From: Escherichia phage CMS-2020a
DNA length: 64,000 bases
Sequence record: CP053388.1
Reading direction: 5' to 3' (one strand)
Positions 20,918 to 61,580 of the stretch are shown here, piece by piece (the first letter of the stretch is position 1; each line of letters opens with the position of its first letter). The notes below the pieces were generated by a model that saw nothing but the letters and a program-made list of their open reading frames with translations, searched no databases and was not told the DNA's origin. Made by a program: the position numbers and the translations under genes.

Positions 20918-20922
20918 TAAAT

Positions 20923-28805: not shown

Positions 28806-28860
28806 CCTGCTTCCGTATATATTTAATAAGTTACTTATTATTTATATATACAGAAGCAGG
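28806..28860. repeat. 55-bp near-perfect palindrome, copy 1 (identical to 61526..61580)
   Basis: CCTGCTTCCGTATATATTTAATAAGTTACTTATTATTTATATATACAGAAGCAGG read at both loci. Confidence 0.9.
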
Positions 28861-28971
28861 CATAACTTGTCGTCTTAGACGCCCAGAAGCTCTACACTTT
28901 GAGCCTGTTAAATTGATTAAAAACTTATGTGTAAAATAGAACGCATTAGTCAGTAGCAAAGAGATGCAATA

Positions 28972-29739
28972 ATGGACGATTTATCGGTATACGCGAGATC
29001 ATTGGATAAGGCTAAATACTATGTTTACTGTCTCTATGATACAGAAGACAAGATGAAAAGACCGTTTTACATAGGAAAAGGCAAATCGACTCGTTGTCTC
29101 GATCACATCAAGTATCCCGATGACTCTCCCAAATCCATGCGGATCAAAGAACTTTTGGCTAATAAAAAATTAGGCATAGATATACTTCGTCATGGTATGG
29201 ATGAAACCACAGCCAAACTTGTTGAGGCGACATGCATCGACCTTATGGGGGTCGGAGAGCTTACGAATAAGGTACGAGGAAGTGGTTCCATGATGGGCAG
29301 AATATCACTGGACGCCTACCATCACTTAGTGCTGCAAGAGGAAACTGAAATTGCTCCTGATCACGCCGGTCTTGCCTTCCTGCTAAACAGCACCTACAAG
29401 TCAGGAATGTCCGCTCTGGCATTATATGAAGCTACGCGTGGCGTATGGGCAAAGGTTCCAAGAGACGAGAATCTCAAATATGCCTACGCTACATATGGTG
29501 GGCTGATAATGGAAGTTTATCAGATTGAATGCTGGGTCAAAGCCGGTTCTCAGCAGTACTTTACAAGGGATATAGCTCTTGGCCCCGACACAAAACGTTA
29601 TGAATTTGTTGGCAGAATAGCCGATGAGCATATTAGAAAACTGTATGTAGGCAAATTAATCAAGAAGCCACCAAGCTACGGTAGCCCTTTTGTGAAGGTT
29701 GGGGTGGTTAGGACTGAACATAGTGTTAGCGCGGCATAA
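28972..29739 (+). CDS. GIY-YIG domain protein (nuclease-family; homing-endonuclease-like or defence-related)
   Basis: N-terminal YVYCLYD...PFYIGKGKSTR...H matches GIY-(10-11 aa)-YIG spacing; + strand gene among minus-strand modules. Confidence 0.5.
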   Translation: MDDLSVYARSLDKAKYYVYCLYDTEDKMKRPFYIGKGKSTRCLDHIKYPDDSPKSMRIKELLANKKLGIDILRHGMDETTAKLVEATCIDLMGVGELTNKVRGSGSMMGRISLDAYHHLVLQEETEIAPDHAGLAFLLNSTYKSGMSALALYEATRGVWAKVPRDENLKYAYATYGGLIMEVYQIECWVKAGSQQYFTRDIALGPDTKRYEFVGRIADEHIRKLYVGKLIKKPPSYGSPFVKVGVVRTEHSVSAA

Positions 29740-29791
29740 AGCTGACACTGTAGTTATGCATTGGCGCAATGTACGCGCCAATGCATGATTT

Positions 29792-30151
29792 TTAACCTTT
29801 CTTCATCAACTCTCGTTTGATTTCATCGGTACGCATCGTGACATCGGCAGCGGTGATCGCCTCATTCAATTTCACGATGTCCTCGATTTCCTGCGGTGAC
29901 TTCTCTGCCAGATGGAAAATGGCTGCTCGAATCACGTCAGAACGAGTGAACTTCTCGAAGCGAGGGATGAACTTCATCATCTCCAGCAGTTCGAAGTATT
30001 CGTCCTCCAGTGACATTGTGCGGCTTTTAATTTTCTCTTTGCCACGAGTCGGGCGTCCCTGTGGTCTGACTGGTTGGCGCAAAGGAGTTGTGTTCTTAGC
30101 CGGTGCATCAGGCTCTTTGCGCTTTGCTAGGTCACCCATTTTCATGGACAT
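29792..30151 (-). CDS. ribbon-helix-helix centromere-binding protein (ParG-like small partition protein)
   Basis: 119 aa, basic N-terminal tail, RHH-like segment MSLEDEYFELLE; start overlaps parA stop. Confidence 0.5.
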   Translation of the reverse strand: MSMKMGDLAKRKEPDAPAKNTTPLRQPVRPQGRPTRGKEKIKSRTMSLEDEYFELLEMMKFIPRFEKFTRSDVIRAAIFHLAEKSPQEIEDIVKLNEAITAADVTMRTDEIKRELMKKG

Positions 30152-30819
30152 TATTCTTCTTCCTCCAGACTCAACAGATAATCTACAAATTCTTCAAACT
30201 CGGCTTCCGCCTTTTTGTCGCGCTCGCTACCGGTCATTTCAAAGATAGAACGACCAGACTCTTCCGCATCATCATAGACGTTGCGGTTATACAGATTGAC
30301 TGGCGCAGACTCGATTCCAAACGTCTCAACAATCTCTTTAGCCGCCAGAATGCGAGACACTTGTGATGGCAAAGCCGGGCACTGGTTCATGACCGCGCGG
30401 ACCTTCACTTTATCGTTTACATTGCGAACATTGTCGATAATAGGATCGATGTCACGTAAAGATTTCAAATCACGACGCTTAGGACGCAGCGGGATAATGA
30501 TAACGTCAGCCATCAGCATCGCTTGTCGCTGAATTTCGGAGTCGAAGCCACCAGCATCTACCACTACAAACTCAGCTCTACCCTGAAGCGATTTTAGGTG
30601 CTTAATGATGTCATCCTGAACGTATGCAAAAGGAATCAGCTCAAGGTCTTCGTTCTGTCGACGGTCTTCACACCAGCTCGTTGTCGTGCGCTGAATATCT
30701 ATATCGGTAATATAAACCTTCTTCTTCTTTTTGACTTTCAGGCAAACGGCAATTTGCTGGGCAACGGTGGATTTGCCAGGCCCGCCCTTTGTGCCGCCAA
30801 CCACAAAGATCTTGGTCAT
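30151..30819 (-). CDS. parA: ParA/Soj-family partition ATPase (short type Ib)
   Basis: deviant Walker A GGTKGGPGKST; 222 aa. Confidence 0.8.
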   Translation of the reverse strand: MTKIFVVGGTKGGPGKSTVAQQIAVCLKVKKKKKVYITDIDIQRTTTSWCEDRRQNEDLELIPFAYVQDDIIKHLKSLQGRAEFVVVDAGGFDSEIQRQAMLMADVIIIPLRPKRRDLKSLRDIDPIIDNVRNVNDKVKVRAVMNQCPALPSQVSRILAAKEIVETFGIESAPVNLYNRNVYDDAEESGRSIFEMTGSERDKKAEAEFEEFVDYLLSLEEEE

Positions 30820-31137
30820 TGGAGAGTTCCCTTTGCGTATATAATTATCGTCTGAAACAACTTGTTTTCTTATATGTGATATAGCCTAAATGCCTACGGC
30901 TGCGGTGTAAAGGTTAAATGGTAGGTTGTGATTAACAATTGGCAATCATAGCTTGTATTTGTCTGTTGAAAAAAGTAACAATGACCTCTATATTACAAGT
31001 ACGGTGATATGCCGTACACAATTTGATAATGCACACGTAATGGGCTATAGCCTTTTAAAGTAATTTTTGAGTCGAAAACTCAGTTTGAACAGAGGAGATT
31101 GATGGCCTTCCTACATCACGGCCATCAGGAGGAATAC

Positions 31138-31407
31138 ATGTCAGCACTAAAAAAGCAGCGCATCGATTTGAGATTAACCGATGACGATAAAAGCATCATC
31201 GAGGAAGCTGCCGCAATGTCTAACCAGAGCATTACTCAGTTTATGGTTAGCAGTGCATCTGAACGTGCCGTGAAAGTTATAGAGCAACACCGTAGACTAG
31301 TTCTGAATGAAGAATCCTGGAATCTGGTTATGGACGCTATAAGCAATCCTCCGGCACCGAACGACAAGCTGAAACGAGCTGCTGATCGTCTGAAAAGCAT
31401 GGAGTAG
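31138..31407 (+). CDS. DUF1778-type (TacA-like) RHH antitoxin
   Basis: small ORF 8 bp upstream of GNAT gene; start set at ATG 31138 with AGGAGG RBS. Confidence 0.6.
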   Translation: MSALKKQRIDLRLTDDDKSIIEEAAAMSNQSITQFMVSSASERAVKVIEQHRRLVLNEESWNLVMDAISNPPAPNDKLKRAADRLKSME

Positions 31408-31414
31408 TTTACTC

Positions 31415-31936
31415 GTGAGCAATACAACGATAGAGATTTTCTCTGGAGAGAAAGATTATGATCTAAACGGTTTTGATTGCGGCGAAGAGTCACTAAACGC
31501 CTTTTTAGCCAACCACTTAAAAAGGCAGCATGAGGGAAAAATTCTTCGTGCTTATGTGCTTTGCACTCAAGAAGAAAGGCCAAAAGTGCTAGGATATTAC
31601 ACTTTGTCAGGTAGTTGTTTTGAAAAGGAGTCCTTACCTTCAAGAAGCAAACAAAAGAAGGTTCCTTATCGGAATGTTCCAAGTGTTACTTTGGGTAGGC
31701 TGGCTTTGGACAAGTCCCTTCAAGGTCAAGGATTTGGCTCAATGCTTGTAACACATGCAATGCGCGTTGTGTACAATGCATCTCTTGCTGTAGGCATTCA
31801 TGGACTTTTCGTTGAGGCGTTAAATGACAAAGCCAAGGCGTTTTATAAAAGTTTAGGCTTTATCCAGCTGGTTGGTAACAACGAGCGTTCTTTGTTCTAT
31901 CCTACAAAATCTATCGAAAAATTGTTCGAAGAATAA
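31415..31936 (+). CDS. GNAT acetyltransferase toxin (TacT/AtaT-like)
   Basis: GNAT motif A LQGQGFGSMLV; operon arrangement with small upstream partner; GTG start. Confidence 0.65.
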   Translation: MSNTTIEIFSGEKDYDLNGFDCGEESLNAFLANHLKRQHEGKILRAYVLCTQEERPKVLGYYTLSGSCFEKESLPSRSKQKKVPYRNVPSVTLGRLALDKSLQGQGFGSMLVTHAMRVVYNASLAVGIHGLFVEALNDKAKAFYKSLGFIQLVGNNERSLFYPTKSIEKLFEE

Positions 31937-31968
31937 TGTGTTCCCCTCATTTGAGGGGAACTTCGACA

Positions 31969-32184
31969 TCACCAACCACAAACCCTCTCTCCCATCGTAT
32001 TGTGAAAAAGGATTTGGCGTTCGGTTTCTTCAGTCATTACATCATTATTGCTGATATAGATAGGCTCAGCCCCATCGCAGAACAACACGCTGGCTGTTTG
32101 TGGTTTAATGACGCACCCACTTATCATACAACTCACGATGAACGGCAGAAGCATCTTTCTGACGTATTTTACTGCTCGTCTCAT
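31969..32184 (-). CDS. o-spanin (Rz1-like outer-membrane lipoprotein) candidate
   Basis: signal peptide with lipobox ISGC; overlaps 3' end of i-spanin candidate. Confidence 0.45.
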   Translation of the reverse strand: MRRAVKYVRKMLLPFIVSCMISGCVIKPQTASVLFCDGAEPIYISNNDVMTEETERQILFHNTMGERVCGW

Positions 32185-32356
32185 TCACCACTTTCACTGT
32201 GTTTTGAAGTCGTTTTCTGTCTTCCTGTTTTGCCTTCTCTTCCATTGCTCGTCGCGCCGCATTCCCGCCCATCGTGTAAGCGCCGACAAGAACGAAAAGA
32301 ACGGCAGCCAGCGTAATCAAAGCAACTTTTAGCTTTGTCATCAGGCTGCCTAGCAT
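32105..32356 (-). CDS. i-spanin (Rz-like) candidate
   Basis: N-terminal TM helix then charged coiled-coil; immediately after lysin-like gene. Confidence 0.5.
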   Translation of the reverse strand: MLGSLMTKLKVALITLAAVLFVLVGAYTMGGNAARRAMEEKAKQEDRKRLQNTVKVVNETSSKIRQKDASAVHRELYDKWVRH

Positions 32357-32357
32357 A

Positions 32358-33077
32358 TTAGACCATCCCTTTCTGGTGTCTTCTTACCTGCGACCAGGCA
32401 ATGAATCCGGCCACAACAATAGTGGCAATGCCGAAGATGATGCGTACTGTATCCCCGCTAGAGATATGACCTTGTGCCTTATCCATAGCAGCGGAAACCT
32501 GCGGCATAACATCGGCCAGCTGCGCCAGACCAATACCTGCTGTAACAGTTGCGCCTGCGGTTTCTTTAGTTACAGGAACAGCCTTCACGGTTTTCACCGG
32601 CTTAACAACGCCAGCTCGACGCAGACCTTCCTCAATAACTTCTGCCGCATACCAGGTGTTCAGCGTTTTTAGCGGGCCTCGGCCATTCTCGTGGCGAATG
32701 ATTGCCTCAACCAAAGGTCGAAGGATGTCGTAATCATGCAGATCGATGATCATGTCTGCGGTTACACCAACGGCTTTAGACACCTCATTAATGTAGGCGT
32801 CAGTATTGTTTTCATTCGGCGGTGCCCAGCGTTCAATAACTTCACGAATGGTATCGATACTTGTGCCGTCTTTTGCGCGACGTTTATCGTGGTAGGTAAT
32901 TAGAGTCACCGCCAGCGCACGAATCCCCCAAACAGGGTCTTTAAACGTGCAAAAGCGCGGTTCGGCAGGGTTGTCGATTAGCCCCTGCCACGGCGAACCT
33001 TTGTCGAGGTTGCCAGGGTTGTTATTACGAATGCCTCTCGGAGTTTTCATCCTTGATCTCCTGTTATTGCAGTCCAT
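32358..33077 (-). CDS. putative cell-wall hydrolase / endolysin with C-terminal membrane anchor
   Basis: position in lysis cassette upstream of spanins; C-terminal hydrophobic helix; catalytic family not identified. Confidence 0.4.
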   Translation of the reverse strand: MDCNNRRSRMKTPRGIRNNNPGNLDKGSPWQGLIDNPAEPRFCTFKDPVWGIRALAVTLITYHDKRRAKDGTSIDTIREVIERWAPPNENNTDAYINEVSKAVGVTADMIIDLHDYDILRPLVEAIIRHENGRGPLKTLNTWYAAEVIEEGLRRAGVVKPVKTVKAVPVTKETAGATVTAGIGLAQLADVMPQVSAAMDKAQGHISSGDTVRIIFGIATIVVAGFIAWSQVRRHQKGMV

Positions 33078-33399
33078 TCTTCACGCCATAAGCGGCCAGA
33101 CCCAGCAGCAGCGCGGTAATCAGGAACGACGTTATCTTTGAGATAATGCCGCCAAAGAACCCGCTGGAGATGGCGTCTAGCCGATTAAGTAGTTTGTCCA
33201 GGTTGGAGTGCTGAATGCTGTGTTGCGAAGGCGTCATATCGCCAAAGTAGGTTTTGAGCTGGTCGTTGACCTCCTGGCCAATTTCCTCACGCAACTCCTT
33301 ACCTAATTTGCCGACAACTTCACGCGCAACGATAGCGGCAATGCGCTCTACCTGCTCTGGCGTTACGCCTGCCATCTCGTTCGACATTATTTCCTCCAT
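33064..33399 (-). CDS. holin-like membrane protein candidate (111 aa)
   Basis: C-terminal TM helix, first gene of lysis cassette. Confidence 0.35.
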   Translation of the reverse strand: MEEIMSNEMAGVTPEQVERIAAIVAREVVGKLGKELREEIGQEVNDQLKTYFGDMTPSQHSIQHSNLDKLLNRLDAISSGFFGGIISKITSFLITALLLGLAAYGVKNGLQ

Positions 33400-33461
33400 G
33401 AATCGTCAAATCGGGATGGCGGTTTTATATCATAAAACGCCCACACTTGGTAGGTAAGTAC

Positions 33462-34244
33462 TTACACATGAGCGCCGTAAATTGCCCCAGCTTTAGTCCA
33501 TGTAGGCGCGTTGCCAGTTACGGCTTTACCAGCTGCTCCGCCGTTATATTCTGTACCGTTACCTTGAGTATTACATCTTCCTCCAGCAGCACCGACATTA
33601 CCACCCGAACCGCCTGTATATGCACTAAGAGACCCCTCACCAACAGATCCTTTACCAGGAGCGGAAATAGTACCAGCAGTTGCACCGGAACTCATATGAG
33701 AGGAAGACCCACCAGCACCGAATGGGCGACCACCGCCACCACCAAATATTAGTTTACCCCTGTTACCGCCGCCACCGCCGCCGCCACCTCCAGCGATTGC
33801 ACCATTATTCGTAATACGCAAGCGTGTACCGATGCCATTATTAATTGCGTTACCACCAGCAGCACCGGCAGCGTTACTACCACCATTGCCACCGCGTCCA
33901 TAGACAGTCACACCTGCGTTGATTACAAGGCTGATATAAGAGTTGGTAAGTGAACTCGGGAAATCTAAACATGGCACGCCGCTACTGGACGACACCAGAT
34001 CCCCTGTAATGGTAACAACGACTGGCGTCGCCCCCTGGGATTTTAAATAGTTGATCAGTGTGTCTTTGTTGTAGTTATGATTCGCACCGATGCTGTAATG
34101 AATTTCCTTAGAACGACCTGCTAACTGAGACATATTCCCAGCAGCAGACAATTGCACCGCCGTTCGAGCTGCACTCATCCATCTCTGGCCTGTCACACTG
34201 ACAGCCGAAGACCCAATCCAACCGGGAACACCGACAATTGGCAC
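33462..34244 (-). CDS. glycine-rich protein downstream of side tail fibre (fibre-associated or receptor-binding accessory)
   Basis: poly-Gly runs; start reassigned to GTG 34244 with AAGGAG RBS (track ORF starts 34301). Confidence 0.45.
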   Translation of the reverse strand: MPIVGVPGWIGSSAVSVTGQRWMSAARTAVQLSAAGNMSQLAGRSKEIHYSIGANHNYNKDTLINYLKSQGATPVVVTITGDLVSSSSGVPCLDFPSSLTNSYISLVINAGVTVYGRGGNGGSNAAGAAGGNAINNGIGTRLRITNNGAIAGGGGGGGGGNRGKLIFGGGGGRPFGAGGSSSHMSSGATAGTISAPGKGSVGEGSLSAYTGGSGGNVGAAGGRCNTQGNGTEYNGGAAGKAVTGNAPTWTKAGAIYGAHV

Positions 34245-34310
34245 ATCTAATCTCCTTTTTGATGTGAATATCCTGAATTGGTGAGGGTGGCCCCTCACCA
34301 TTCACCTTGA

Positions 34311-37300
34311 TTACATTTTTGCCTTCAGTTCGCGCACTTCCTCGCGCAGCTCTTTGACAGCCTCGACCAACATGCCGATAACGCCGTTGTAGTTAAGACG
34401 CAGACGAGGCTCTCCTGACTGATCGTTATGGTCAACCGTTACCAGTTCAGGCTGAACATTCTGGACGTCCTGAGCGATGAGGCCGCCAGACTGCTCATAC
34501 CGGTCACAGACCTGAATCTCGTACAGAACACCTTCGATCCGATCCAGCTTGTCGAGCGCTCGTTCAATCTTGCGAATATTGCGTTTGCTACGACGGTCAG
34601 AGCGGATATAAACGTCATTAAAGCTGCCATTACCGCCACAAACCCAAGTACCATCATTCTGGAGGTATGCGTTCGCATCCGTGCCGTTTGCGGTACGTGA
34701 GTTGTTGATCATGTAAAAACCAAACTGACTGTTTCCCAAGCCACCCAAGAAGAATTTGCGATCCGCGTGGTCTTGTCTCAACAACGCTTGTGCAGAGCTT
34801 GTACTTACAGCGTTCCTCCCGAAGATGACGTTCTGGTTACGCATATCTATCCACGCGCCAGAGCCGCTGTTGATGGAAAAACGGTTGGCGTAAACCCACG
34901 CACTTGACGTGATGTCACCCGTTACACTCAACGGCTTAAGGCTTTGCAGCGTGCTATTAACGAACCTAAAAACATGGGCGCTATTGGCGTAAACATCCAG
35001 AATGCCATCTCCGTTCTGTTTAAAGCCGGTGTCATTGTCACCCAGAACAATGGAATTACCGCCAAGAGCACTGGATGTACCGATGCCCAGTGCACCATTC
35101 AATTGACCTCCAGATAATGATAACGCCCCAACATCAGCAGCAGTCGGTTTAATGTGCGAACTGTAAATTACATATACAGTTCCATCTGTCAGGCCTGTTG
35201 GTTTATTCGCTGTATAAGTTGGTGATGTATGAATCGTTACGCTGGCGTTACTGGTATAATCCCACTGGATATTAACACCTGTGGCGTAATTACCTATTTC
35301 TACATAAATGTCATAGGTATCACCGGATGTATTCACCCATGCAAAATTAGTAAATCCAACCGAGGTCCGTCGCCATAATGCACCAGTAATACCTTTGGGG
35401 TTCCCATTTCCTGCACGCAGAACCAGCTCAGAGATGCCTGCTTGCTGCGGGGAGCCAACGTTAAACCCTGCGCCACCAATCAGGCTTATGTAAACCACGG
35501 AACTGGCTTGTGGCATGGTTACAGTTGCCAGCTTGAACCATCCGGCACCACCACTAAAAGACATTGTTGCTGAGTTGATCGTGCCTATAGACCTTGGAGT
35601 TAGCTCAATATTTTTAGAACCGTCAAACGACACCCCATTTATAGTTCTAGCGGTTTGTAACTTGGTCGCTGTCGCTGCATTACCGGTTGTGTTCTGGTTA
35701 CCAGCAATGTTTACACCCGGCAGGTTGATATTGGCGGAGCCATCGAATGACACGCCGCCTATTGTGCGTGCTGTTTGCAGTTTTGTTGCAGTTGCAGCAT
35801 TACCGTTCAAACTACCATTGATGCCGCCAGTAACATTGAGTCCATTACCGATCGTAACAGCACCGCTGGTATTATTAATTATAATAGGTCGCAAACCGTT
35901 CCATGAACCTAATGTGTCTCCTGATGCTGTTAGCATGAAATATGTGTTCGATCCATCATTACGGATAAAGAATCCATAGTTGCCATAGGCAATGCGCAGA
36001 CCATTCGCCGATTTTGAAATAATCTCGCCAGCAGCAGTTAATCCGCCAGTTAACGCTCCTCCAGAAAGCGATAATGCTCCTACATCAGAAGCTGTTGGTT
36101 TGTTTCTAGTGTTATAAGAACGACGCCAGCCTGGCGCGTAATCACTGCCATTGTACACATAAATAAATTCCGCATTGTTAACACCACCATGACCCGATGT
36201 TGTTGTCGTTGTAACACGAATAGTGTAGTGGCTTGTTGCCTTATTACTAAACACCTCAATCACGGAACCAGATAGATCGATCCTACCGCAACCAGTGTCG
36301 TCTATATAATTATTGTTGGCGTAAGTCCATGAGCACCGTGCGATCCAATGTTTGTTTGTAAATGCCCCCTGATTATTTAGCCAAGTTATAAATTGAGCAG
36401 TCGTAAATGCCGTTCCGTTACCACTATTTAACCATCCAGCGGCAGCGGTTGGCGCGTTTATATCAGCCGGCTGAGGCATAAATCCAGTCGTGTAAACCTG
36501 CTCCCAACCACTTTCAAAACCATAGCCATCTCTTGAGGAACGGTAGAACAGACCACCATTTTTATAGTGAGCTTTAATTTGAAGCGTACGGCAACTACCT
36601 AAACCGGTATAAAAGTTGGCAAGAATATAACTGTGGCCTGTTCTATTTACATTATAAGCACCAGATTCAGCATTCCACGGCACGCCACCATCAGCATCCG
36701 CATATGACCCTGTTGCCCTTCTTGCGAAAGCGGCAACATGCGCAGCGGTTAAAGTGATATCAGTAGAACCATCAAATGGAACACCGGATATTTTTCTTAC
36801 CGTCTGAAGTTTTGTAGCAGTTGCAGCATTACCAGTGGTGTTCTGATTACCCGTAGTGTTTACACCTGGAAGGTTAATATTTGCAGAACCGTCGAAAACA
36901 ACTCCACCGATAGATCTTGCCGTCTGCAATTTCGTGGCTGTACTTGCATTACCATTCAATGAACCAGTTAATCCACCTGTAACAGACAACGGACCTGAAA
37001 CTGTTCCTCCGGTTGTTGGCAGTGCTCCAATATCTAACGGCGTCGGTTTCTGATGTGTGCTATACATCGTATAAACAACACCATCGGTAACGCTGGAAGG
37101 CTTACTCGCTGAATATGTTGGCGATGTATAAATAGAAACTGTCGCATTTGCAGTACAATCCCAATGGATATTTACACGAGTCGCATAATTGCCAATCTCA
37201 ACGTAAATATCATATGTATCGCCGGATGTGTTGATCCAGGCGAAATTCGTTAACCCGACGGCTGTACGCTTCCACAAAGCCCCGGTAATTCCTTTGGGGT

Positions 37301-43868: not shown

Positions 43869-43880
43869 AAAAATCCTTGT

Positions 43881-51654: not shown

Positions 51655-51709
51655 TGGTTAAAATCCTTTTAAAAGAGAGGCCCATCCTGAGCCTCTGCTT
51701 AATTACTGA

Positions 51710-52492: not shown

Positions 52493-52530
52493 TCATTGCG
52501 CTAATAGTAAGTATATACTTACCAATTGAG

Positions 52531-52887: not shown

Positions 52888-52915
52888 CAAACTTGCAAAC
52901 GCTTCAATAAACACA

Positions 52916-53389
52916 TTAACCTCTCGTAAATCCGGCTTTTCTGGCAGCCTCAAGAATCGCTTCTGAGAACTGCTTCTCGCTAATTTCCACCGCTCTTTCC
53001 AGAAAGTGTGGCCCAACACGGGGTTTAACACCGGCAATTGGTGGGTTTGTCACGTTCTTCATTCGAGAAAGATAACCGAGTCGGTATTTACCCAGCTCCA
53101 TGTACTTAGCATAGTCACCGACTTCTACGCCCGGATGCCCCTGACGTGGTTTTGCTCCAGACACAGAAAGCTCAATGCGCAGCCCTGAATAACCTTCTTT
53201 AATCACCCTGGCAAAGATGGCTGTCTCCAGAGATCCGGTTTCCAGCGGGGCCATTGCACGGCTGAGGCGCTCAACCAAACGCGCCAGCTTTTCCATGTCC
53301 CGAATAAGATATCGCTTAAATGCTTTCTGGCTGTTGTTGAGTCTATTCCCCGCACGTTTGAACTGATGCGCATCGTATTTCAGACCCAT
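52916..53389 (-). CDS. head-tail joining / tail completion protein candidate
   Basis: position in connector gene block; 157 aa. Confidence 0.4.
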   Translation of the reverse strand: MGLKYDAHQFKRAGNRLNNSQKAFKRYLIRDMEKLARLVERLSRAMAPLETGSLETAIFARVIKEGYSGLRIELSVSGAKPRQGHPGVEVGDYAKYMELGKYRLGYLSRMKNVTNPPIAGVKPRVGPHFLERAVEISEKQFSEAILEAARKAGFTRG

Positions 53390-53820
53390 ATATTCGCCCC
53401 TACTTCAAGATGCCCAGGTCTTCCTCGTAGCCCCCAGCGGCGATGAACACTGGACGCCTTTAATTTTTGACCTTCAAGGATCAGTACATCATCAAGTTGT
53501 ACAGCCGCTTCTAAAGGGACTACTAACACAGCATCAAACAGCTCCAGACTCGCCTTACCACGACTACCAGAGCTATCAGCACGAACTGACGATTTCTCAT
53601 TACTCTGTTCGAACTTAACCACGCCGACATTCGTCTTCCTGACGAATTGTAATTGCGCCTCACCGTAAACGTTCTTTGCGCCAAAGCGGTAGATCGCAAT
53701 TTCTGTTTGCCATGAAATATTCATGCTCTCTCCCTGTTGTTGTCGGTCGCTCTCATTACTGGCCAAAAACCCTTTCGACCAAAAGTAAATAATGCGACTG
53801 GCGTTACGCACGGCGAACAA
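53380..53820 (-). CDS. head-tail connector protein candidate
   Basis: position; 146 aa. Confidence 0.4.
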   Translation of the reverse strand: MFAVRNASRIIYFWSKGFLASNESDRQQQGESMNISWQTEIAIYRFGAKNVYGEAQLQFVRKTNVGVVKFEQSNEKSSVRADSSGSRGKASLELFDAVLVVPLEAAVQLDDVLILEGQKLKASSVHRRWGLRGRPGHLEVGANIWV

Positions 53821-54637
53821 TCATACGGTTGTTGATGTAACTGACCAGCAAGCGCCAGGTACTACGAGCCACATGCACGTTTGCAGCTTTACCGGTACGG
53901 TACATGTTGGTTGTTTCACCGATGGACTCTGACAAAATGCCATCCTCTCGTGCTGCGGCTACATCATTGCCATTTGCGATCTCACACGCTTCGTTGACAA
54001 CGGCAAGCATCAACGCTTCTTTGAAGTAGTCAGGGAACTCTTCAAACTTCTCCTGCGTCATCTTTTCCCAATCGACTAAATCATGCCGGTACGCTCCATC
54101 TGCTCCCCACGGAATGTCATACACATTCAGCATATTTTGAGGGCGATCGTATCGGTCAAAGTCGATACGTAGAATTTTGCGGATTGAGAACGGTAAAGTT
54201 TTAATTCGTCTGGTAGCCTCAATGAGACGCTTGCGCATTAAGCCTTCACCATCCGACAGCAAAGTGTCCCCATTCAGCATATCGATCGCCTGCATTTGAG
54301 CATCAGCGACAGTTGCAAACGACTGTTCTGGTATCGACAGTTCAAAACTATTCAGCAGAACATACATTTGCCGCTCTTCATGCGTCAGACCCGATGCAAC
54401 AGCCTTCACAATGACGTACCGCAGATCTCGCTCTTTCTCAGAGAGCTGGTTATATTCAGCCGACACGACAACCGGAATCGACATTTGACCGCTGGTAATT
54501 TCTAGCGGCTCGCCATCAACGAGAATAGCCCCGGTGCTGTCCTTTACTGTGTAGGTAGCAGATTCGATATCCAGCACGTTGAAGGCAAATGAAAGAGAAA
54601 CAGCTTCACCGCTACGATACGAGTCGATCTGCGCCAT
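53804..54637 (-). CDS. hypothetical structural protein (277 aa)
   Basis: within head/connector module. Confidence 0.4.
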   Translation of the reverse strand: MAQIDSYRSGEAVSLSFAFNVLDIESATYTVKDSTGAILVDGEPLEITSGQMSIPVVVSAEYNQLSEKERDLRYVIVKAVASGLTHEERQMYVLLNSFELSIPEQSFATVADAQMQAIDMLNGDTLLSDGEGLMRKRLIEATRRIKTLPFSIRKILRIDFDRYDRPQNMLNVYDIPWGADGAYRHDLVDWEKMTQEKFEEFPDYFKEALMLAVVNEACEIANGNDVAAAREDGILSESIGETTNMYRTGKAANVHVARSTWRLLVSYINNRMIVRRA

Positions 54638-55071
54638 TACTCACCGCCTTGTGCTTTCAGGATGCCTTCAATCATCTCGACAATTCCTTTCGCTTTGACA
54701 CCAACCTGATTACCAATAACTCGTAGACCGGCAATACCTTCGTTGTCTGCAATGGACTCCAGCTCTTCTCGTGTGAAAGCCTGGATCTGTTTGGCCGGTT
54801 CATCTGGTGTTCCACGTTTCATTGGCACAATGTCAGGCGCTGCTGGCTCGGTAATCAGGTCTGCTGTCAATTCACCACGATCACTGTATGCGGCAGACGG
54901 AGAAACATTTTTGCCCTCTACTGTTGACGCTCGCATTGAAGCACAAATCCTCTGCTGATCGATAAAAGGCAACTCCGCTACGGATACCCCGTTCTCGAAC
55001 TGAACGCCGCACAGCATTCCCGAATAACCGGAAAATTGCGGTTCTAATAAAACAATTTTTGCTGGTTTCAT
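54637..55071 (-). CDS. hypothetical structural protein (144 aa)
   Basis: within head module. Confidence 0.4.
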   Translation of the reverse strand: MKPAKIVLLEPQFSGYSGMLCGVQFENGVSVAELPFIDQQRICASMRASTVEGKNVSPSAAYSDRGELTADLITEPAAPDIVPMKRGTPDEPAKQIQAFTREELESIADNEGIAGLRVIGNQVGVKAKGIVEMIEGILKAQGGE

Positions 55072-55115
55072 AACGCTTTCTCTCCTCTTGGGCGGCTTTC
55101 GCCGCCCAATGTCGG

Positions 55116-56036
55116 TTATTCCTGTGCGGCAGTGACCTCTACGGTCGCTGTCGCTTTGTGGCTACCATCTTGGGTAGTAACCTCGATTGTGGCAGTACCA
55201 GCCGCAACACCAGTTACAACACCGGTTTCGCTGTCCACCGTTGCAAACTCGGTATTTTTAGATTCCCAAGTAACGGTTTTATTTGTGGCTCCTGCCGGCT
55301 CGACATTTGCGGTCAGCTGAACAGTTTTGTTTGCCTCAACGGTTGTGCTATTTGGGTCGATTCCGACGCCGGTAACAGCCACAACAGGCGCAGTTACTTC
55401 CACCGTTGCAGTTGCCTTTTTGCTGCCATCTTGGGAAACGATCTCAATCGTCGCAGTGCCAACTTCTACACCAGTAACGTTCCCGCTCTGGTCTACCGTT
55501 GCCTTGTCTTCATTTTTGGAAGACCAGGTAACTGCCTTATTCGTCGCATTTGACGGCTGAACATTCGCTTTCAGACTGACTGATTTCCCTTTCTCAACAG
55601 AGGTTGAGTCTGGCGTTACCGTTACGGATTTAACGGCTACCGGATTTACGGTGACTTCCACTGACGCGGAAAGCTGGGTTTCCTGATCAGTTGCGGTAAT
55701 TTTCACTTTGCCTGGGGCTACGCCAGTTACTAATCCAGTGCCGTTAACGGTTGCAATTTGATCATTGGCTGACTTCCAGGTAAATGAACTGGCACTCTTA
55801 CCCATACTAATACCTGCACTAAGTTGAACAGTTTTCCCAACCAAAACTGATGGTGAAGCCGGAGTTATGTTTACGGATTGGGAGAAGGGAACCGCCTGCA
55901 AACAAGCAGATAGCTGACTTTGTTGCCGCTCGGTTAAAGGTTCATCGGAGATAGAATTGGTAAATCCGGCGCGGCACATATGCCCCGTAAAATCCGAAAA
56001 TGCCTCTTCCGTAATCTTCATCTTTTGTTCTGGCAT
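55116..56036 (-). CDS. Ig-like (Big_2) repeat protein, head decoration candidate
   Basis: three Ig-like repeats (TVQLTANVEP, WSSKNEDKATVDQSG type); follows capsid gene. Confidence 0.5.
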   Translation of the reverse strand: MPEQKMKITEEAFSDFTGHMCRAGFTNSISDEPLTERQQSQLSACLQAVPFSQSVNITPASPSVLVGKTVQLSAGISMGKSASSFTWKSANDQIATVNGTGLVTGVAPGKVKITATDQETQLSASVEVTVNPVAVKSVTVTPDSTSVEKGKSVSLKANVQPSNATNKAVTWSSKNEDKATVDQSGNVTGVEVGTATIEIVSQDGSKKATATVEVTAPVVAVTGVGIDPNSTTVEANKTVQLTANVEPAGATNKTVTWESKNTEFATVDSETGVVTGVAAGTATIEVTTQDGSHKATATVEVTAAQE

Positions 56037-56109
56037 TTCTTGCTCCTACAAAAAGGGTGGGCGTATAGCCCACCCTTAAACATAGATAATTACTTATCTA
56101 CAACACTGA

Positions 56110-56985
56110 TTAAATTTTTACATTGGTCAGTGCAGCGATAGCCTTATCGTGCTTATTCGCCAGAGAGCAGTACCACTTCACACGGGTACGTACTGCGTCT
56201 TTGTTCTGTACAGTACCAATGTTTTCAACAACGATACCTGCGTTGTCGCCGCCATACAGACCAGTAACGCCGTTCTCTTCTGACAGATGCAGGCAGTAGA
56301 TGCTTGCTTTGCCAGCATCGGTCGGAATGAAGTCGTTTACGATAAACGGAACGCCGTTATGGCACAGCATCGGACGACCGAAGTTCTCCATCATGATTTC
56401 AGACGGACCTACGTTTACTGTACGCAGCAGCGCACGGTAAGCACGCAGGTGCTCTGAACGCATCATGATGCAGTCAGCACCAAGATCTTTCACCGCATCG
56501 ACCAGTTCGTCGAACATGGAGAAAGTCATAGATGCACCGGCGATATCGATCTTCTGATCTGCGTGCATCAGGCGTGGAATGCCGTCAAACGCCTTGTTGT
56601 TAGTGGTGGAGTCGCCAACAATCAGATTGCGACGGAAGGCACGAGCCAGACCTTTGACTTTCTGACGAACCTGGATAGCCAGCTGGTTGTTGGTATCAGC
56701 CATAGTGGTAGCCAGGAATTTGTCGACGTCAACGTCGCCAGCCAGAATGCGCAGCTTCGCAACTTTCTCTTCGAAGGTTGCTGCACCTTCGGTGATGGTG
56801 TCGTTCACATCAATGAAAGTAGCTTCGCTCAGCGTTTTTTCACGGTTGTACAGATATGCCTTTGAATTAATTTTCATAAAAGGCAGGATGGCAAACAGGT
56901 CATCGCGATCGATGATAGTTTCGATCACACCCTGTTCAAGTTCGTTGTTAGACAGCTTTTCAGCTTCTTCACGCAGTAATGGCAT
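56110..56985 (-). CDS. major capsid protein candidate
   Basis: 291 aa gene immediately after scaffolding gene. Confidence 0.6.
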   Translation of the reverse strand: MPLLREEAEKLSNNELEQGVIETIIDRDDLFAILPFMKINSKAYLYNREKTLSEATFIDVNDTITEGAATFEEKVAKLRILAGDVDVDKFLATTMADTNNQLAIQVRQKVKGLARAFRRNLIVGDSTTNNKAFDGIPRLMHADQKIDIAGASMTFSMFDELVDAVKDLGADCIMMRSEHLRAYRALLRTVNVGPSEIMMENFGRPMLCHNGVPFIVNDFIPTDAGKASIYCLHLSEENGVTGLYGGDNAGIVVENIGTVQNKDAVRTRVKWYCSLANKHDKAIAALTNVKI

Positions 56986-57010
56986 CTATCAATTCCCTTT
57001 GATTTAGATG

Positions 57011-57898
57011 TTACTTAAGTCCAATTTTCCCCAGACCGGAGGCCAACTTATCCATAGTCGACTTGTTCTTCGGTTGGGATATTGTGTAGGTCGATTTGGA
57101 ATGTGAGCCTACACCCTGCTTGGCTTCGCTACGCATCAATGCGTCAGCTTCCGGATCTGCCCGCACAATGCGTTCAATCGCGGATTCAAACGGCAACGGC
57201 TTACCTTCACCGTCAACCAGAACAGCTCGTTCTTTATGACCTGCCGGTTTGTCATAACCCACTACGCTACCGTCTTCACCCACTTCAAAATGAGAACCGT
57301 AGATCACGCGGGCTTTTGCCGGGGTCATCAGAACTTTGTCACGTAGGAAGAGAGAGTTACTGAAGGAAGCGCCCACGGTCATCTCGACTAATTGAGATTT
57401 CAGTGATGCGTTTTCACTTTCCAGTGCTGTATAACGTTCGTCACGCTGTGCCAGCTCTGCCTGGTGTGCTTCGATCATCTGTTTTTTAACAGCATCGAAC
57501 TCACCACGACGCTCCAGTTCAGCTTGCTCCGCCTCACGACGTGCATTTTCTGCGGCCTGTTCAGCTTCTAAAAGCTGGCGAGCACGCGCCGGGTCGATAT
57601 CACCGTACTGAGCAAGCTGATCGGCCAATGTGCGCTCTTTCTCTTTGCGCTTCATGTTCTCCTTCAGCAGTTCAGCACCAGCTTTCTTGGTTTTACGAAG
57701 TTCGGCCAGTAACTCTTCCTGAGTCATGCCAGCGTATTCGTCATCGCCCTTCGGCTGCTCTTTTTGTTCACCCTGTTTGTCAGGATCTTGTGTGCTCTGC
57801 TCATTATCAGCAGCTACACCGCCAGCGCCTCCACGCTCATGCGCTTCAGCGACATCCATCAGACCACGACGGGCCAAAAGCATTTGCCACAGATTCAT
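57011..57898 (-). CDS. scaffolding protein candidate
   Basis: charged coiled-coil 295 aa between portal and capsid genes. Confidence 0.55.
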   Translation of the reverse strand: MNLWQMLLARRGLMDVAEAHERGGAGGVAADNEQSTQDPDKQGEQKEQPKGDDEYAGMTQEELLAELRKTKKAGAELLKENMKRKEKERTLADQLAQYGDIDPARARQLLEAEQAAENARREAEQAELERRGEFDAVKKQMIEAHQAELAQRDERYTALESENASLKSQLVEMTVGASFSNSLFLRDKVLMTPAKARVIYGSHFEVGEDGSVVGYDKPAGHKERAVLVDGEGKPLPFESAIERIVRADPEADALMRSEAKQGVGSHSKSTYTISQPKNKSTMDKLASGLGKIGLK

Positions 57899-57919
57899 AA
57901 AAATTCCTTTTGTTACTTA

Positions 57920-59494
57920 TCACTCGTTCTCTTGAGTAGATGAGTCCCCATTCCCTCGGGGTTGATCTTGCCCGCTTTCTTGGGCTGCACCACGATAATA
58001 AGTAAGTACTGACTTATTTTCAAGGGTATTTAGATCATTTTTTGGAGGAAAATTCAAGAGATCTTTATCAAATTCCTTTTTCATCGCCTCAGTAATGTTC
58101 GGGAAAATCTTCTCAATAAGCATTTCCATCTGGTGACGACGTACAGAGTCCGGTGCCTGAAGTAATGACAGTTTCTCGGCAACAGAAAATTCATCAGTAA
58201 GGCCACGAATATCGAAACTTTCTGGATACGCAATTAAAGAGTGGTCTTCGTCCAGATCTGCCCCCATCCATTTCGCAACCAGTAGCATGATTTGGCGTTC
58301 AGCCCTTTCCAGACGCTCTGCTTTTGTGACAAGCAAGCTATTTACACGCTGGAAGTCATACATTTTTGCGGCACCAGATGAATTATCGATTCCCTGTGCG
58401 TTGTCCTGCTTCGTTCGCTCACCAGCTACACCAACTGAATGGTAGATTTCGTTAATCACCGTCTTAATCGTAGTGATGATCATCTGAGCTTGTTTCGGGT
58501 CTGGTGACAGATAAAACGGCTGGTTTCCACCTTCAGAATCGTAGGTGAAGACTCGCTTTGTGCCCATTTCAAGCACTTTAGTGTGGTTTTCATCACCAGG
58601 TAAAAGCGACTGTACCGGTATAGCCAACTGGCTAAATGTCTGATCCTGAATAATGGCATCAAGGTTTGACAGATAGTTTGCAACCGCACGATCAAGATAA
58701 GCGATATCATCGATCAACGATGGGCTGAAATACGGTGATTCACTTTCTCCAATACAATCAACAGGAAACACAGGAACTACGCCGAGATTATGCTCACCGC
58801 TATCCTCTAAAATAACTTTTGCCTGACGGCGACCTGCTCCACCAGCGCCCTTCTTCACTTCCTCACGGAACAGATACCACTCGTTTTGTGTCCACAGACG
58901 ATAACGTTGGTATTCCTGACCTGTAGAAGTAAAAGGATCTGCGTCATCACGAGCGACTTCCACAATTAACGCCCACAACATATTCCCGTCGTCGTCCCAT
59001 GCCACATCCAGCATTTGCTGAGGTGAAATCCAGTAGGCGTAGGCGCGAGCATCTTTCTTTTTCTCGTCAGCTACTGACTCAACATCACCACTCATCGTGC
59101 TATCGACAACAACCCATATGCGACCGTAAATAGACGACTGCAAATCAATAGCGGCCATAAATGAGTCAATAGAGGCATTCTGGCGAGTCGCACGTTTCCA
59201 GAAATTGCGGATCTGCTCTGGTGCCTCTTCGATATTTCTATGAATGTCTTCTTTAAAGAGATATTTGTTGATGAGGTTTACCACCTCACGAGTGTGGTTG
59301 AAGCGATAAGCACGTTCAACTCGCTCCTTAAACTCCTGATCTCCCTCTTTAAAGTAACGAAAGATATTGTCTGTAAACCAACCACGCCCGCCAGCGTAAG
59401 TGCTGGCGAGGAAGTCCCAATGTTCTTTTTTCTTTTCGTATTCCGGGTGGCGTCGCGCCACCAGATCCTTAATTTGTTTGTCGTTCAATTCCAT
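57920..59494 (-). CDS. portal protein
   Basis: 524 aa directly after terminase large subunit. Confidence 0.7.
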   Translation of the reverse strand: MELNDKQIKDLVARRHPEYEKKKEHWDFLASTYAGGRGWFTDNIFRYFKEGDQEFKERVERAYRFNHTREVVNLINKYLFKEDIHRNIEEAPEQIRNFWKRATRQNASIDSFMAAIDLQSSIYGRIWVVVDSTMSGDVESVADEKKKDARAYAYWISPQQMLDVAWDDDGNMLWALIVEVARDDADPFTSTGQEYQRYRLWTQNEWYLFREEVKKGAGGAGRRQAKVILEDSGEHNLGVVPVFPVDCIGESESPYFSPSLIDDIAYLDRAVANYLSNLDAIIQDQTFSQLAIPVQSLLPGDENHTKVLEMGTKRVFTYDSEGGNQPFYLSPDPKQAQMIITTIKTVINEIYHSVGVAGERTKQDNAQGIDNSSGAAKMYDFQRVNSLLVTKAERLERAERQIMLLVAKWMGADLDEDHSLIAYPESFDIRGLTDEFSVAEKLSLLQAPDSVRRHQMEMLIEKIFPNITEAMKKEFDKDLLNFPPKNDLNTLENKSVLTYYRGAAQESGQDQPRGNGDSSTQENE

Positions 59495-59520
59495 TTGAAT
59501 AACCTTAGATAACTACTTAC

Positions 59521-60777
59521 CTATCGAGAACCACCAAGAATAACACGGTTTTTGACTGGATACCTACGATGTACTGGATAGCCCAATGCGTCTGCACTAT
59601 GCTCAATGCCACCTGTCTTATCCATATCTCGTGTTCCAGGCTTGTAGATGACTTTTTCCAGTGAATCAATCAAATGCTTGCACTTCGGATCGATATACAG
59701 CCGGATATCTCCAGATGCGGACATCAGCATTCGGTTAACAGCATTAACACGATCCGCAATTGGCGGGTGCTTTTTCGAATAATCGACACGTAAGAATCCC
59801 TTCTCTTTGAATATGTCTACGTCAGACTCCCCACGAGCATGTTGGCGATAAGCACCTGCCGGATCTGGAAATACCGTTACCTGTGATTTCCAGCGCCAGA
59901 AGCGTCTCTCAAGCTCATCACAAACTTCTGCCGTGTTAGAGGAAAAGAGCACCAATTCATCAATTGCCCATAGCTCACCATTTGGCTGAGGTTGCAAAAT
60001 TACTGAAGACATCGGGTCAATGTTGAAGTCCTGCCCTACCCATATAGGCAACCGAGGGTTGAACTGAAGCGGTTTTACATGCACGTTACGATCGAACGGG
60101 TAGTAAACGCGCCCGGACATGTTCTCAAAGCTGGCCAGGTACTCCTGAGCGAACGATTTGGGGTCCATATCGTTCTTAGCAGCTTCAATTTCCGCCGTAG
60201 GTACAAACGGAGAATCGGCAGTTACAAACTGCCAGCTCTTCCACTGTCCCTTTCTTTGCAGCTCTACGTTCTGGCCTATCGTCCACAGTTTGTGAAATTC
60301 CGAGAAGCCTTTTGGCGTACCAATGATCAGTGCACCGCCGCGTGTCGATGAAAGAGTAGGTCGTAACACCTTGTACCAGGTGTCAGCCTTCATATCCTGA
60401 AATTCATCAAGCACTACAAAATGCAACGCTACGCCGCGCAGAGTGTCAGGCTTATCAGCACCTTTGAGGGCGATCTCCGAACCGTTCTTCAACACGATTG
60501 TCATCGTGGTGTCGTTCTTTTTCCTAACCCACTTACGAGGCAGAACTTCCTGTAGATCGTCCCACAAAATCTGGCGAGCCATCTGGTAAGTAGGAGCGAC
60601 ATACCAGACCCTTTGCTTTTTTTCCTTTGCCGCCGCACGAATAATAGTGGAGATCGACAACCGGGATTTTCCCCAGCGTCGACCAGCACAAACAACTTTA
60701 AATCGATGCGGAGACTGGAAGACTTTCATCTGTCCAGAATGCAGTTGCACAAGACTGAGCGAGGACGGGATTGCCAT
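59521..60777 (-). CDS. terminase large subunit
   Basis: Walker A-like AGRRWGKS, Walker B VLDEFQD, acidic nuclease-type C-terminal region. Confidence 0.75.
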   Translation of the reverse strand: MAIPSSLSLVQLHSGQMKVFQSPHRFKVVCAGRRWGKSRLSISTIIRAAAKEKKQRVWYVAPTYQMARQILWDDLQEVLPRKWVRKKNDTTMTIVLKNGSEIALKGADKPDTLRGVALHFVVLDEFQDMKADTWYKVLRPTLSSTRGGALIIGTPKGFSEFHKLWTIGQNVELQRKGQWKSWQFVTADSPFVPTAEIEAAKNDMDPKSFAQEYLASFENMSGRVYYPFDRNVHVKPLQFNPRLPIWVGQDFNIDPMSSVILQPQPNGELWAIDELVLFSSNTAEVCDELERRFWRWKSQVTVFPDPAGAYRQHARGESDVDIFKEKGFLRVDYSKKHPPIADRVNAVNRMLMSASGDIRLYIDPKCKHLIDSLEKVIYKPGTRDMDKTGGIEHSADALGYPVHRRYPVKNRVILGGSR

Positions 60778-61409
60778 TATTCGTCCTCCCCTTCACTTCC
60801 ATCATCTGTCGCATCAAATTCGCTTAGAGCTTCTTCTTCCAACGTCTCAAGCAATTCGTCATCGATGATTTCAGGCTCGTCGTCTTCCTGACGTAATTTC
60901 GCCACCTGGGAAGGCGTAAGCTCACCAAATACCAGGTTCGGAATTTCTTCCTCGTCATTTTCCGCATGATCCATGCCCAATGCTTTGGACGAAACTTCAA
61001 AGCATTTTGCAAGGGTATTACTGGCTCTCTGTAAGCTCTTGAGAGAATCCTCAATCGCCCCTAAAGGCTTACCCTCACGTTTGGCCGTAGTGACTTCGAC
61101 CATCACCATCTGCCCCAACGCATACGCCCAGCCGTCATAACGTGTACGACGTTCTTCTATCTTTTCCGCACGGGCTTTAGCGCGAAGCTCTGCGTCAGAT
61201 TTAAGAGACTCACGAACCATCTTCCCAACAGAGTCCGCGCCTTTCTCTAATCCTCGCTTTTTGAAATGTCTGGAGAGTGTTTCACGACGAATGCCGTACT
61301 CTTCCTCCAGCTTTGAGAGTGTATATTCGCCTGACGTCCATTTGGCTTCAGCTTCGGCCCACTCCGCTGGTGTCAGGCGAGTTTTTACCTCGTCTTTTTC
61401 GACCGTCAT
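60777..61409 (-). CDS. terminase small subunit candidate
   Basis: 210 aa with HTH-like N-terminal region and acidic C-terminus; ATGA-coupled to large subunit. Confidence 0.55.
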   Translation of the reverse strand: MTVEKDEVKTRLTPAEWAEAEAKWTSGEYTLSKLEEEYGIRRETLSRHFKKRGLEKGADSVGKMVRESLKSDAELRAKARAEKIEERRTRYDGWAYALGQMVMVEVTTAKREGKPLGAIEDSLKSLQRASNTLAKCFEVSSKALGMDHAENDEEEIPNLVFGELTPSQVAKLRQEDDEPEIIDDELLETLEEEALSEFDATDDGSEGEDE

Positions 61410-61525
61410 AGATCCCTCTAAAACACACAGAGCGCGTCCATGCGCTCTAAAACAACTTGTTTACTGCATCTGCTAACCAACTTGTTTTCTGGGGTGTTTA
61501 ATTAGGTCTGGCATGTCTTACGAAG

Positions 61526-61580
61526 CCTGCTTCCGTATATATTTAATAAGTTACTTATTATTTATATATACAGAAGCAGG
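61526..61580. repeat. 55-bp near-perfect palindrome, copy 2 (identical to 28806..28860)
   Basis: exact 55-bp match read in sequence. Confidence 0.9.

Follow-up and report, generated by a model that had tools for sequence, protein, structure and literature searches.

Genomic setting of two identical palindromes

The DNA studied here is a 64,000-nucleotide stretch of sequence record CP053388.1, listed under Escherichia phage CMS-2020a, and is called the window below. Judged by its similarities, it is an SSU5-like phage-plasmid: the window was 98% identical to Escherichia phage PhiR41_1, 97–99% to CMS-2020a and Cyrano, 83–88% to Salmonella phage SSU5 and approximately 80% to Klebsiella phage-plasmids such as pJN2-26. 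The complete PhiR41_1 genome is 107,998 bp long and carries nearly all its genes on one strand, which corresponds to the minus strand of the window and is referred to here as the sense strand. An earlier note on the window had drawn attention to two exact 55-bp palindromes ahead of the replication and terminase operons. Both the palindromes and their positions were confirmed: the 55-mer CCTGCTTCCGTATATATTTAATAAGTTACTTATTATTTATATATACAGAAGCAGG is present on the plus strand at 28806–28860 and again at 61526–61580 (hereafter sites C and B, respectively), and the operons adjoining the two copies all lie on the window minus strand.

In the sense direction, site C is located after the par and cargo region, consisting of a parA/parB-like pair and, in the window, an intervening GIY-YIG insert on the opposite strand, and before the replication operon. 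The first gene of that operon (27949..28698, minus strand; 246/249 amino acids; phrog_2500, function unassigned) is followed by the gene for a DnaB-like helicase (26565–27905, minus strand) and then by the primase gene. The operon had been taken to start at 28698, a GTG codon. The ATG at 28689 is the more probable start, based on its good AGGTGA Shine-Dalgarno sequence and its annotation as the start in PhiR41_1. Site B is situated between the stop codon of an 88-amino acid gene (phrog_900; 61605..61871, minus strand), which is the last gene of the upstream operon and abuts the site B module, and the gene for a TerS-like DNA-binding protein (60777..61409, minus strand), the first of the packaging and morphogenesis genes. 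The TerL gene (59521–60777, minus strand; Pfam Terminase_6N/Terminase_3) comes next, with the portal and virion genes after it. Sites B and C jointly bracket the whole virion, lysis and par block.

In the sense direction, site C is preceded by a slot of variable cargo (28861–29791); the hairpin and its tail are constant. The cargo is a GIY-YIG-domain gene between parB and site C (28972..29739, plus strand; Pfam LEM-3_GIY-YIG) in the window and PhiR41_1, and DUF2971 with other genes in SSU5 and pJN2-26; many different flanks were seen in contigs of the IMG/VR database. The GIY-YIG gene is missing from CMS-2020a, Cyrano and SSU5. The slot is an insertion hot spot for accessory genes.

The repeat is predicted to fold as a long hairpin with a GC-rich base

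The exact repeat was far beyond chance, because a search of the window with up to three mismatches found no additional match to the 55-mer and there was none in 100 shuffles. The similarity between the two copies stretches to 72 bp at 89% identity. The 55-mer is an imperfect palindrome in which positions 1–17 pair with positions 39–55 to form a lower stem, with a single mismatch that is C·A on the plus strand and G·U on the minus strand. Above the lower stem are an asymmetric internal loop, an upper stem of 7–8 bp (AAUAAGU/ACUUAUU) and a 3-nucleotide loop. The predicted RNA folding energy was -27.7 kcal/mol for the minus (sense) strand versus -22.2 kcal/mol for the plus strand, and with DNA parameters the corresponding values were -15.2 and -12.9. 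The base of the sense-strand hairpin is an 8-bp clamp, CCUGCUUC/GAAGCAGG, and the z-scores against shuffled sequences ranged from -7.5 to -9.3. The sense strand thus has the stable hairpin with a GC-rich stem base that is characteristic of intrinsic terminators.

The inner hairpin at site C (28806..28860, minus strand), the copy of the helicase and replication operon, was delimited by the exact repeat, the sense fold and its occurrence at the same site in relatives, and its sense RNA reads CCUGCUUC-UG-(UA)n-AAAUAAUAAGU-A-ACUUAUUAAA-(UA)n-CG-GAAGCAGG. The terminase-side inner hairpin at site B (61526..61580, minus strand) is the same sequence in the window genome. Across the family, the sense consensus is CCTGCTTC-YG-(TA)n-AAATAATAAGT-N-ACTTATTAAA-(TA)n-CR-GAAGCAGG, with a free central base that may be A, T, G or C. 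The lengths of the (TA)n runs in the two arms vary independently and insertions or deletions in one arm are tolerated. In several variants, and in site A of the E. coli lineage (see below), the clamp is kept around unrelated apices. None of the hairpins was matched by the Rfam covariance models, which at the gathering score identified only three tRNAs in the window; these are three tandem genes at 20754–20997 on the minus strand (RF00005; 75.5, 74.9 and 41.6 bits).

Three fixed sites in one family of phage-plasmids

To sample relatives without bias toward the repeat, the TerS-like and 249-amino acid proteins were used as probes, and 156 IMG/VR loci were fetched. The element was upstream of both probe genes in essentially all 156 loci, the exceptions being truncations at contig ends, and 48 distinct variants were recovered. 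Conservation and position in related genomes had been proposed as a check on the two palindromes, and essentially all of approximately 150 relatives, from E. coli, Salmonella and Klebsiella, carried the element at both positions. SSU5 and pJN2-26 were found to have both copies. The count of two copies was correct for the window and incomplete for the genome: a whole-genome scan of PhiR41_1 identified a third copy, site A, at 13435–13487 and outside the window. Site A has the same clamp and TA arms around an unrelated apex, and is located between two co-directional genes.

A pattern scan of IMG/VR with classification of the flanks placed 283 of 283 occurrences with identifiable flanks at the three intergenic sites A, B and C. 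In a scan of 185,579 species-representative genomes, the pattern was found in 7 stretches only, on contigs of 29–109 kb from Kluyvera, Buttiauxella, Yersinia pestis and one metagenome-assembled genome, and these contigs look like SSU5-like plasmids. Since both scans showed only SSU5-like contigs and three sites, the hairpin family is, as far as these databases reach, private to SSU5-like phage-plasmids, with three copies per genome. A host repeat of the REP, ERIC or MITE kind was ruled out by the scan of the species genomes and by the three fixed sites. No earlier description of the element was found in the searchable literature.

Flanks and tails of the modules

On the sense strand, the site C hairpin runs directly into a U-rich tail, UCUUUUAAAAG (28795..28805, minus strand). 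The tail TCTTTT(T/A) was present in nearly all of 54 distinct extended variants of site C. Because this tail, UCUUUU(U/A) in the RNA, is nearly constant even though the upstream flank is hypervariable, site C has the anatomy of an intrinsic terminator. The tails of site A are CTGTTTTG, CTTTTAAA or CTTTTTAG. At site B, the sense tail is CTTCGTAA, TTCTGAAT or CTCTCAAA, and there is no U-tract.

Site B has instead an extended, two-tier palindrome (61505..61602, minus strand) that starts 3 nucleotides past the stop codon of the 88-amino acid gene and in which an outer stem, GGUCUGGGAG/CCAGACC, surrounds the inner hairpin. The outer inverted repeat, GGTCTGGGAG...CTCCCCAGACC, yields a structure of approximately 100–115 nucleotides, and the region 61490–61615 (minus strand) had a predicted folding energy of -52.4 kcal/mol (z -9.3). 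The duplex between the two flanks of site B had a median z of -3.0, with 86% of 37 variants below -2. Outer pairing was strong only at site B; it was weak at site A and essentially absent at site C. In the sense orientation, the modules at sites A and B start approximately 3 nucleotides past the upstream stop codon and so lie where a transcription unit ends, as would be expected of a terminator.

Between site B and the TerS-like gene there is a second hairpin (61449–61428, minus strand), in which GC-rich AGAGCGCAUGGACGCGCUCU is followed by GUGUGUUUUAG and which extends to 61418. This hairpin ends approximately 10 nucleotides before the terS Shine-Dalgarno sequence, and SSU5 keeps it in altered form. 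It has the look of a canonical leader terminator, suggesting that the late operon may be controlled by antitermination. Downstream of site C, a conserved stretch and a dyad are found directly before the start codon, consistent with a separately controlled promoter.

Concerted evolution of the copies

The B and C copies could be paired for 42 genomes. The mean edit distance between B and C was 5.36 within a genome versus 5.69 between genomes, and only 55 of 5000 permutations gave a value as low. The two copies were exactly identical in just 7 of the 42 genomes. All lineages have ACTTATTAAATATATACGG as the B-type right arm, and the C copies of SSU5 and Klebsiella have ACTTATTATTATTTATACGG, whereas the C copy of the E. 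coli lineage bears the B-type right arm. In some lineages all copies have private signatures in common, for example TATATTAAATAATAAAT in L067 and L152.

The exact identity of the window copies had been attributed to selection or gene conversion. Conversion fits: as the copies within a genome are more alike and the C copy has a B-type arm, exact identity appears to be a by-product of recent conversion, and occasional events, from B to C in the lineage of the window, would account for it. Selection for identity does not fit the small number of identical pairs, and identity itself is not conserved.

Base substitutions and distant relatives

Non-Watson–Crick combinations in the lower ten stem pairs were predominantly G·U rather than A·C on the sense strand (38 versus 4 in the first sample). 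By site, these numbers were 33 versus 3 at site C, 7 versus 1 at site B and 7 versus 5 at site A. Sense RNA was predicted to be more stable than antisense RNA in 28 of 33 site C variants. At the position pairs 5/51 and 9/47, the states C-G, U-G and U-A were all found and C·A was rare, and this three-state pattern is the classic path of RNA helix evolution. In pJN2-26, there was a compensatory CCTGTTTC/GAAACAGG change at site C and not at site B of the same genome; such a change in one copy argues for base pairing rather than for an altered specificity of a binding protein.

The same slots were inspected in more distant relatives. In L295–L299, whose TerS-like proteins are 53–61% identical, the site B slot holds a long, AT-rich, GC-clamped hairpin of unrelated sequence, and in two of these distant lineages the hairpin is followed by ATTTTTTGTGTTTTTT. 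In L300–L303, whose homologs of the 249-amino acid protein are 48–64% identical, the site C slot likewise holds GC-clamped hairpins of unrelated sequence. L300 has the same clamp around an unrelated 25-nucleotide loop, followed by TCGCTTTT, and in L303 a short GC hairpin precedes TTTCTTTC. These comparisons suggest that structure, and not sequence, is what has been kept, and they support this more strongly than the G·U counts do.

Other repeated motifs and genome features

Several other repeats were observed in these genomes. A lox-like site, AATGATTCCATAC-ATAGTAG-GTATGGAATCATT (13+7+13 bp), is present at 17735–17767, approximately 100 bp upstream of a tyrosine recombinase gene (16533–17636). 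Extra exact copies of the 13-bp half-site were found at 11704–11716, 21192–21204 and 22204–22216, making 5 matches versus 0.08 expected, and the segments 11704–11723 and 22197–22216 are 20-nucleotide perfect inverted repeats 10.5 kb apart. The lox-like site is probably the dimer-resolution site and a better target for the recombinase than the hairpins.

A family of 20-bp dyads, ATA(A/G)GTAAGTACTTAC(T/C)TAT (ATAAGTAAGTACTTACTTAT-like), has approximately 20 copies per genome versus approximately 1 expected. Copies in the window are at 4350, 7870, 21743, 25265, 28706, 39082, 46000, 52494 and 57995, and others occur throughout the PhiR41_1 genome. Almost all are intergenic, often 5–40 nucleotides past a stop codon or 10–45 nucleotides before a start codon, and by analogy with the C1 operators of P1 the dyad may be a dispersed operator or promoter motif. 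The center of the 55-bp palindromes had been described in the earlier note as this recurrent dyad, and a master operator was among the roles offered. The TAAGT/ACTTA half-sites are indeed shared, but their spacing differs and the apex of the hairpin has at least 5 mismatches in 20 to the dyad consensus. A master operator built on the dyad is also contradicted by site A and several variants, which are without that center, by the tolerance of (TA)n insertions and deletions in one arm, and by distant relatives that keep a hairpin and not the sequence.

Another palindromic motif, which reads AGAAAACAAnTTGTTT in the sense direction, was found at 3196–3226, 27910–27940, 30840–30870 and 61460–61490, shortly upstream of four gene starts (the gene at 2769–3194, helicase, parA and terS); terS is preceded by two copies in tandem. 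The distant relatives L295 and L296 have the motif too. It may be the operator of a global regulator.

The 119-amino acid partner of ParA (29792–30151, minus strand) has a conserved TRSDVIRAAI motif typical of the ribbon-helix-helix centromere-binding proteins of type Ib partition systems. A plasmid-type replicon occupies 1–1616, with a RepA-like open reading frame at 1–1095 (annotated as "DNA replication protein" in PhiR41_1) and, after it, iterons of approximately 17–36 bp (GTATGCTGTGAGCGGTAAA-like) at 1091–1616. In PhiR41_1, at 11669–11703 and outside the window, there is a short, canonical, bidirectional terminator, AAAGCCTGCTT-loop-AAGCAGGCTTT, after a gene for a DNA polymerase III epsilon-like protein. 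The stem of this terminator and the clamp of the long hairpins (GCCTGCTT/AAGCAGGC) are alike.

A proposed role as transcription terminators or insulators

The reading that we favor, and to which we give an even chance, is that the hairpin modules act as transcription terminators or insulators at the boundaries between gene modules. A terminator was one of the roles offered in the earlier note and is the best supported of them. From the conserved position and anatomy of the elements we infer that they are transcribed and that they terminate or insulate. Once transcribed, each module would fold as a long RNA hairpin with the GC-rich base CCUGCUUC/GAAGCAGG and AU-rich arms. The hairpin would end or block read-through, and would probably also protect the 3' end of the upstream mRNA. 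Each module is found at the junction of two functional blocks, just past the final gene of one and ahead of the first gene of the other, and would insulate blocks whose regulation needs to be opposite. Transcription of parAB and the cargo region would be stopped by site C from entering the helicase-primase operon, and site B would keep the ParB-N/ABC-ATPase operon upstream of it apart from the terminase and virion operon. Because site B has no U-tract and is a two-tier palindrome of 100 bp, it would probably block transcription weakly or conditionally, or else serve as a hairpin for processing or stability, backed by the terminator-like hairpin before terS.

A number of observations do not sit easily with this proposal. 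The stems span approximately 25 bp and include an internal loop; compared with those of typical terminators they are far longer and richer in A and U, and a simple terminator scan of the window did not flag the hairpins. Site B does not have the defining feature of an intrinsic terminator: the 61526 copy has CUUCGUAAG, UUCUGAAU or CUCUCAAA in place of the U-tract that is present at site C and largely so at site A, and a U-tract was absent on either side of site B in the SSU5, E. coli and Klebsiella lineages. In the window the gene directly upstream of site C is oppositely oriented, so that site C would have to terminate parAB read-through across an antisense gene. One of the distant relatives, L302, is a misfit for a terminator: its perfect 20-bp hairpin lacks a U-tract and lies between divergent genes. 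The evidence from base substitutions is similarly mixed. The G·U excess was strong at site C only and absent at site A. In addition, every G·U variant represents a C>T change on the sense strand, and a strand mutation bias could also produce the excess; the genome has a GC skew of +0.06, and the flanks had 4 C>T changes versus 1 G>A change. The strand asymmetry of G·U pairs was consequently set aside as proof of RNA function, being confined to site C and confounded by a possible C>T strand bias. Covariation gave no help: the 21 lower-stem types were 95.9% paired, 430 of 500 shuffles scored as high and there was one double change, a result that was not significant because the columns are nearly invariant within the close family.

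Alternative explanations

A doubtful alternative is that the palindromes work at the DNA level, either extruded as cruciforms or bound as duplex dyads by a protein of the phage-plasmid, in some DNA transaction. They could be dispersed centromeres for ParA and a ribbon-helix-helix ParB, as in N15, headful pac sites for the TerS-like protein, or sites of lytic replication or priming near the helicase-primase genes. (TA)n-rich palindromes extrude readily, and the close family conserves the sequence of the element, as well as its structure, to a high degree. RNA pairing is unproven by covariation, and the three copies are dispersed over the genome, at boundaries between modules, with site C adjoining both the par and the helicase genes. 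Distant relatives, however, lose the sequence and keep the structure and its position, insertions or deletions of (TA)n in one arm shift the spacing between clamp and apex, the compensatory clamp change in pJN2-26 affects one copy only, and the U-tract is conserved on the sense side. As regards a centromere, the ribbon-helix-helix-like partner of ParA was 67% identical in L300, in which the clamp is kept and the apex is unrelated, and 34–42% identical where the hairpins are unrelated; it thus diverges in parallel. A replication origin was rejected as the iterons are at 1091–1616, in a replicon (RepA and iterons, 1–1616) that lies elsewhere than the hairpins; no turning point of the GC skew coincides with the sites, and the skew is uninformative as it merely tracks gene orientation. 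For packaging, site B immediately precedes terS and contains the break of the linear SSU5 record (NC_018843): the record ends at the equivalent of window position 61543/61544, and its joined ends rebuild the 55-mer as 18|37. The TerL is of the Terminase_6N/Terminase_3 type; under headful packaging extra pac sites would be harmless, and a pac role for site B is conceivable. The Cyrano record ends at the same place (window position ~61544), having presumably been linearized to match SSU5, and these two are the only records that end at site B. Two unrelated assemblies (L097 and L101) break inside site C, so the break in SSU5 can be an assembly artifact, and this is a sufficient explanation for where that record ends. 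The paper on Cyrano reported no termini, and literature searches found no packaging data for these phage-plasmids.

It is distinctly unlikely that the hairpins are in the first place elements of RNA processing or stability. As an RNase III-type site or a barrier to 3' exonucleases, an irregular hairpin of approximately 25 bp would cleave long polycistronic transcripts where modules meet and determine the half-lives of the flanking mRNAs, in the manner of T7 R-sites, lambda sib or REP elements. The T7 R1.1-type sites are a known type of RNase III substrate, and the stem length and internal loop of the hairpins resemble such substrates. Site B is without a U-tract and yet the most elaborate structure, the modules begin right after stop codons, and an almost wholly co-directional genome favors long transcripts. 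Against this, the conserved U-tracts at sites C and A point to termination, and what is found in distant relatives is a short, classic terminator (L303) or hairpins with long U-tracts (L295 and L296), which are not RNase III-like. We see a similarly small chance that the three modules are coordinated structural elements of DNA or RNA, evolving in concert, that split the one-directional 108-kb genome into three domains, with site B, in which the virion-derived SSU5 record ends, doubling as a site where packaging is initiated or the DNA is cleaved, or as a regulated switch between plasmid and lytic expression. Very improbable is a site for the tyrosine recombinase, one of the roles that had been proposed, or a cos or other site-specific cleavage site. 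The palindromic architecture, a recombinase encoded in the same genome, a cargo slot that abuts site C and rare variants with the whole hairpin flipped at site C (the L089 type) might suggest one, and the flips are explicable by template switching within the palindrome. The 55-bp element does not have the arms of 11–13 bp, the spacer of 6–8 bp and the proximity to a recombinase gene that mark lox and dif sites; the lox-like site close to the recombinase gene does, and it has further half-sites elsewhere. If directly repeated sites at a distance of 32.7 kb recombined, the virion module would be deleted, yet order and orientation are kept, with terS and the helicase operon co-oriented and 27–32 kb apart in more than 40 genomes, none of which had an inversion or deletion. 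A cos site was rejected because TerL is not of the cos type by Pfam, three copies per genome are incompatible with cos packaging, and the L097 and L101 assemblies break in site C too. Recombination and cos cleavage are thus largely refuted, and the share of probability that is left over belongs to something other than the readings considered here.

Significance and comparison with known systems

Clinical Enterobacteriaceae commonly carry SSU5-like phage-plasmids, among them pHCM2 of S. Typhi, the pMT1-related plasmids and many elements of Klebsiella and E. coli, and hardly any work has addressed how these phage-plasmids are regulated. Three hairpin modules between the maintenance, replication and virion blocks would provide a map of probable transcription units and handles on how the plasmid state silences the lytic genes, and the repeats explain breaks in assemblies. 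The element is previously undescribed, private to one family, present in three copies and evolving in concert; a terminator-like role would be a known kind of function. If the modules are ordinary terminators, as is most likely, their wider biological significance would be modest.

The modules share with intrinsic terminators a hairpin with a GC-rich base, a U-rich tract at sites C and A, and a location at the end of one transcription block and before the next, and textbook versions are found in the same slots of distant relatives. They differ in having a stem of approximately 25 bp with AU or (UA)n arms and an internal loop, rather than the usual GC-rich stem of 5–14 bp, in the absence of a U-tract at site B, and in being near-identical paralogs that evolve in concert. 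Like REP, BIME and ERIC elements, which are thought to stabilize mRNA 3' ends or to act as weak terminators, they are multi-copy, imperfect palindromes in presumably transcribed intergenic regions just past stop codons, and site B, at approximately 100 bp and two-tiered, is reminiscent of ERIC. Unlike those elements, they occupy three fixed, orthologous sites in one family of phage-plasmids, without resemblance to the REP consensus or sign of mobility.

The T7 R-sites and lambda sib are also irregular hairpins of approximately two helical turns with an internal loop, located between blocks of a co-directional phage genome; in contrast to them, two of the three sites here have conserved U-tracts. 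The centromeres of N15 and the KorB operators (OB) of RK2 are similar in being a few palindromes scattered at operon boundaries, and here too ParA and ParB are encoded nearby. Those sites are strictly conserved, protein-binding dyads of 13–16 bp, whereas the present element is 55 bp long, tolerates insertions, deletions and apex swaps, and gives way to unrelated hairpins in distant relatives. Finally, P1, with loxP and Cre, is another phage-plasmid that combines palindromic DNA with a tyrosine recombinase, but here it is the site at 17735–17767, and not the 55-bp hairpins, that has 13-bp arms around a 7-bp spacer in the manner of lox.

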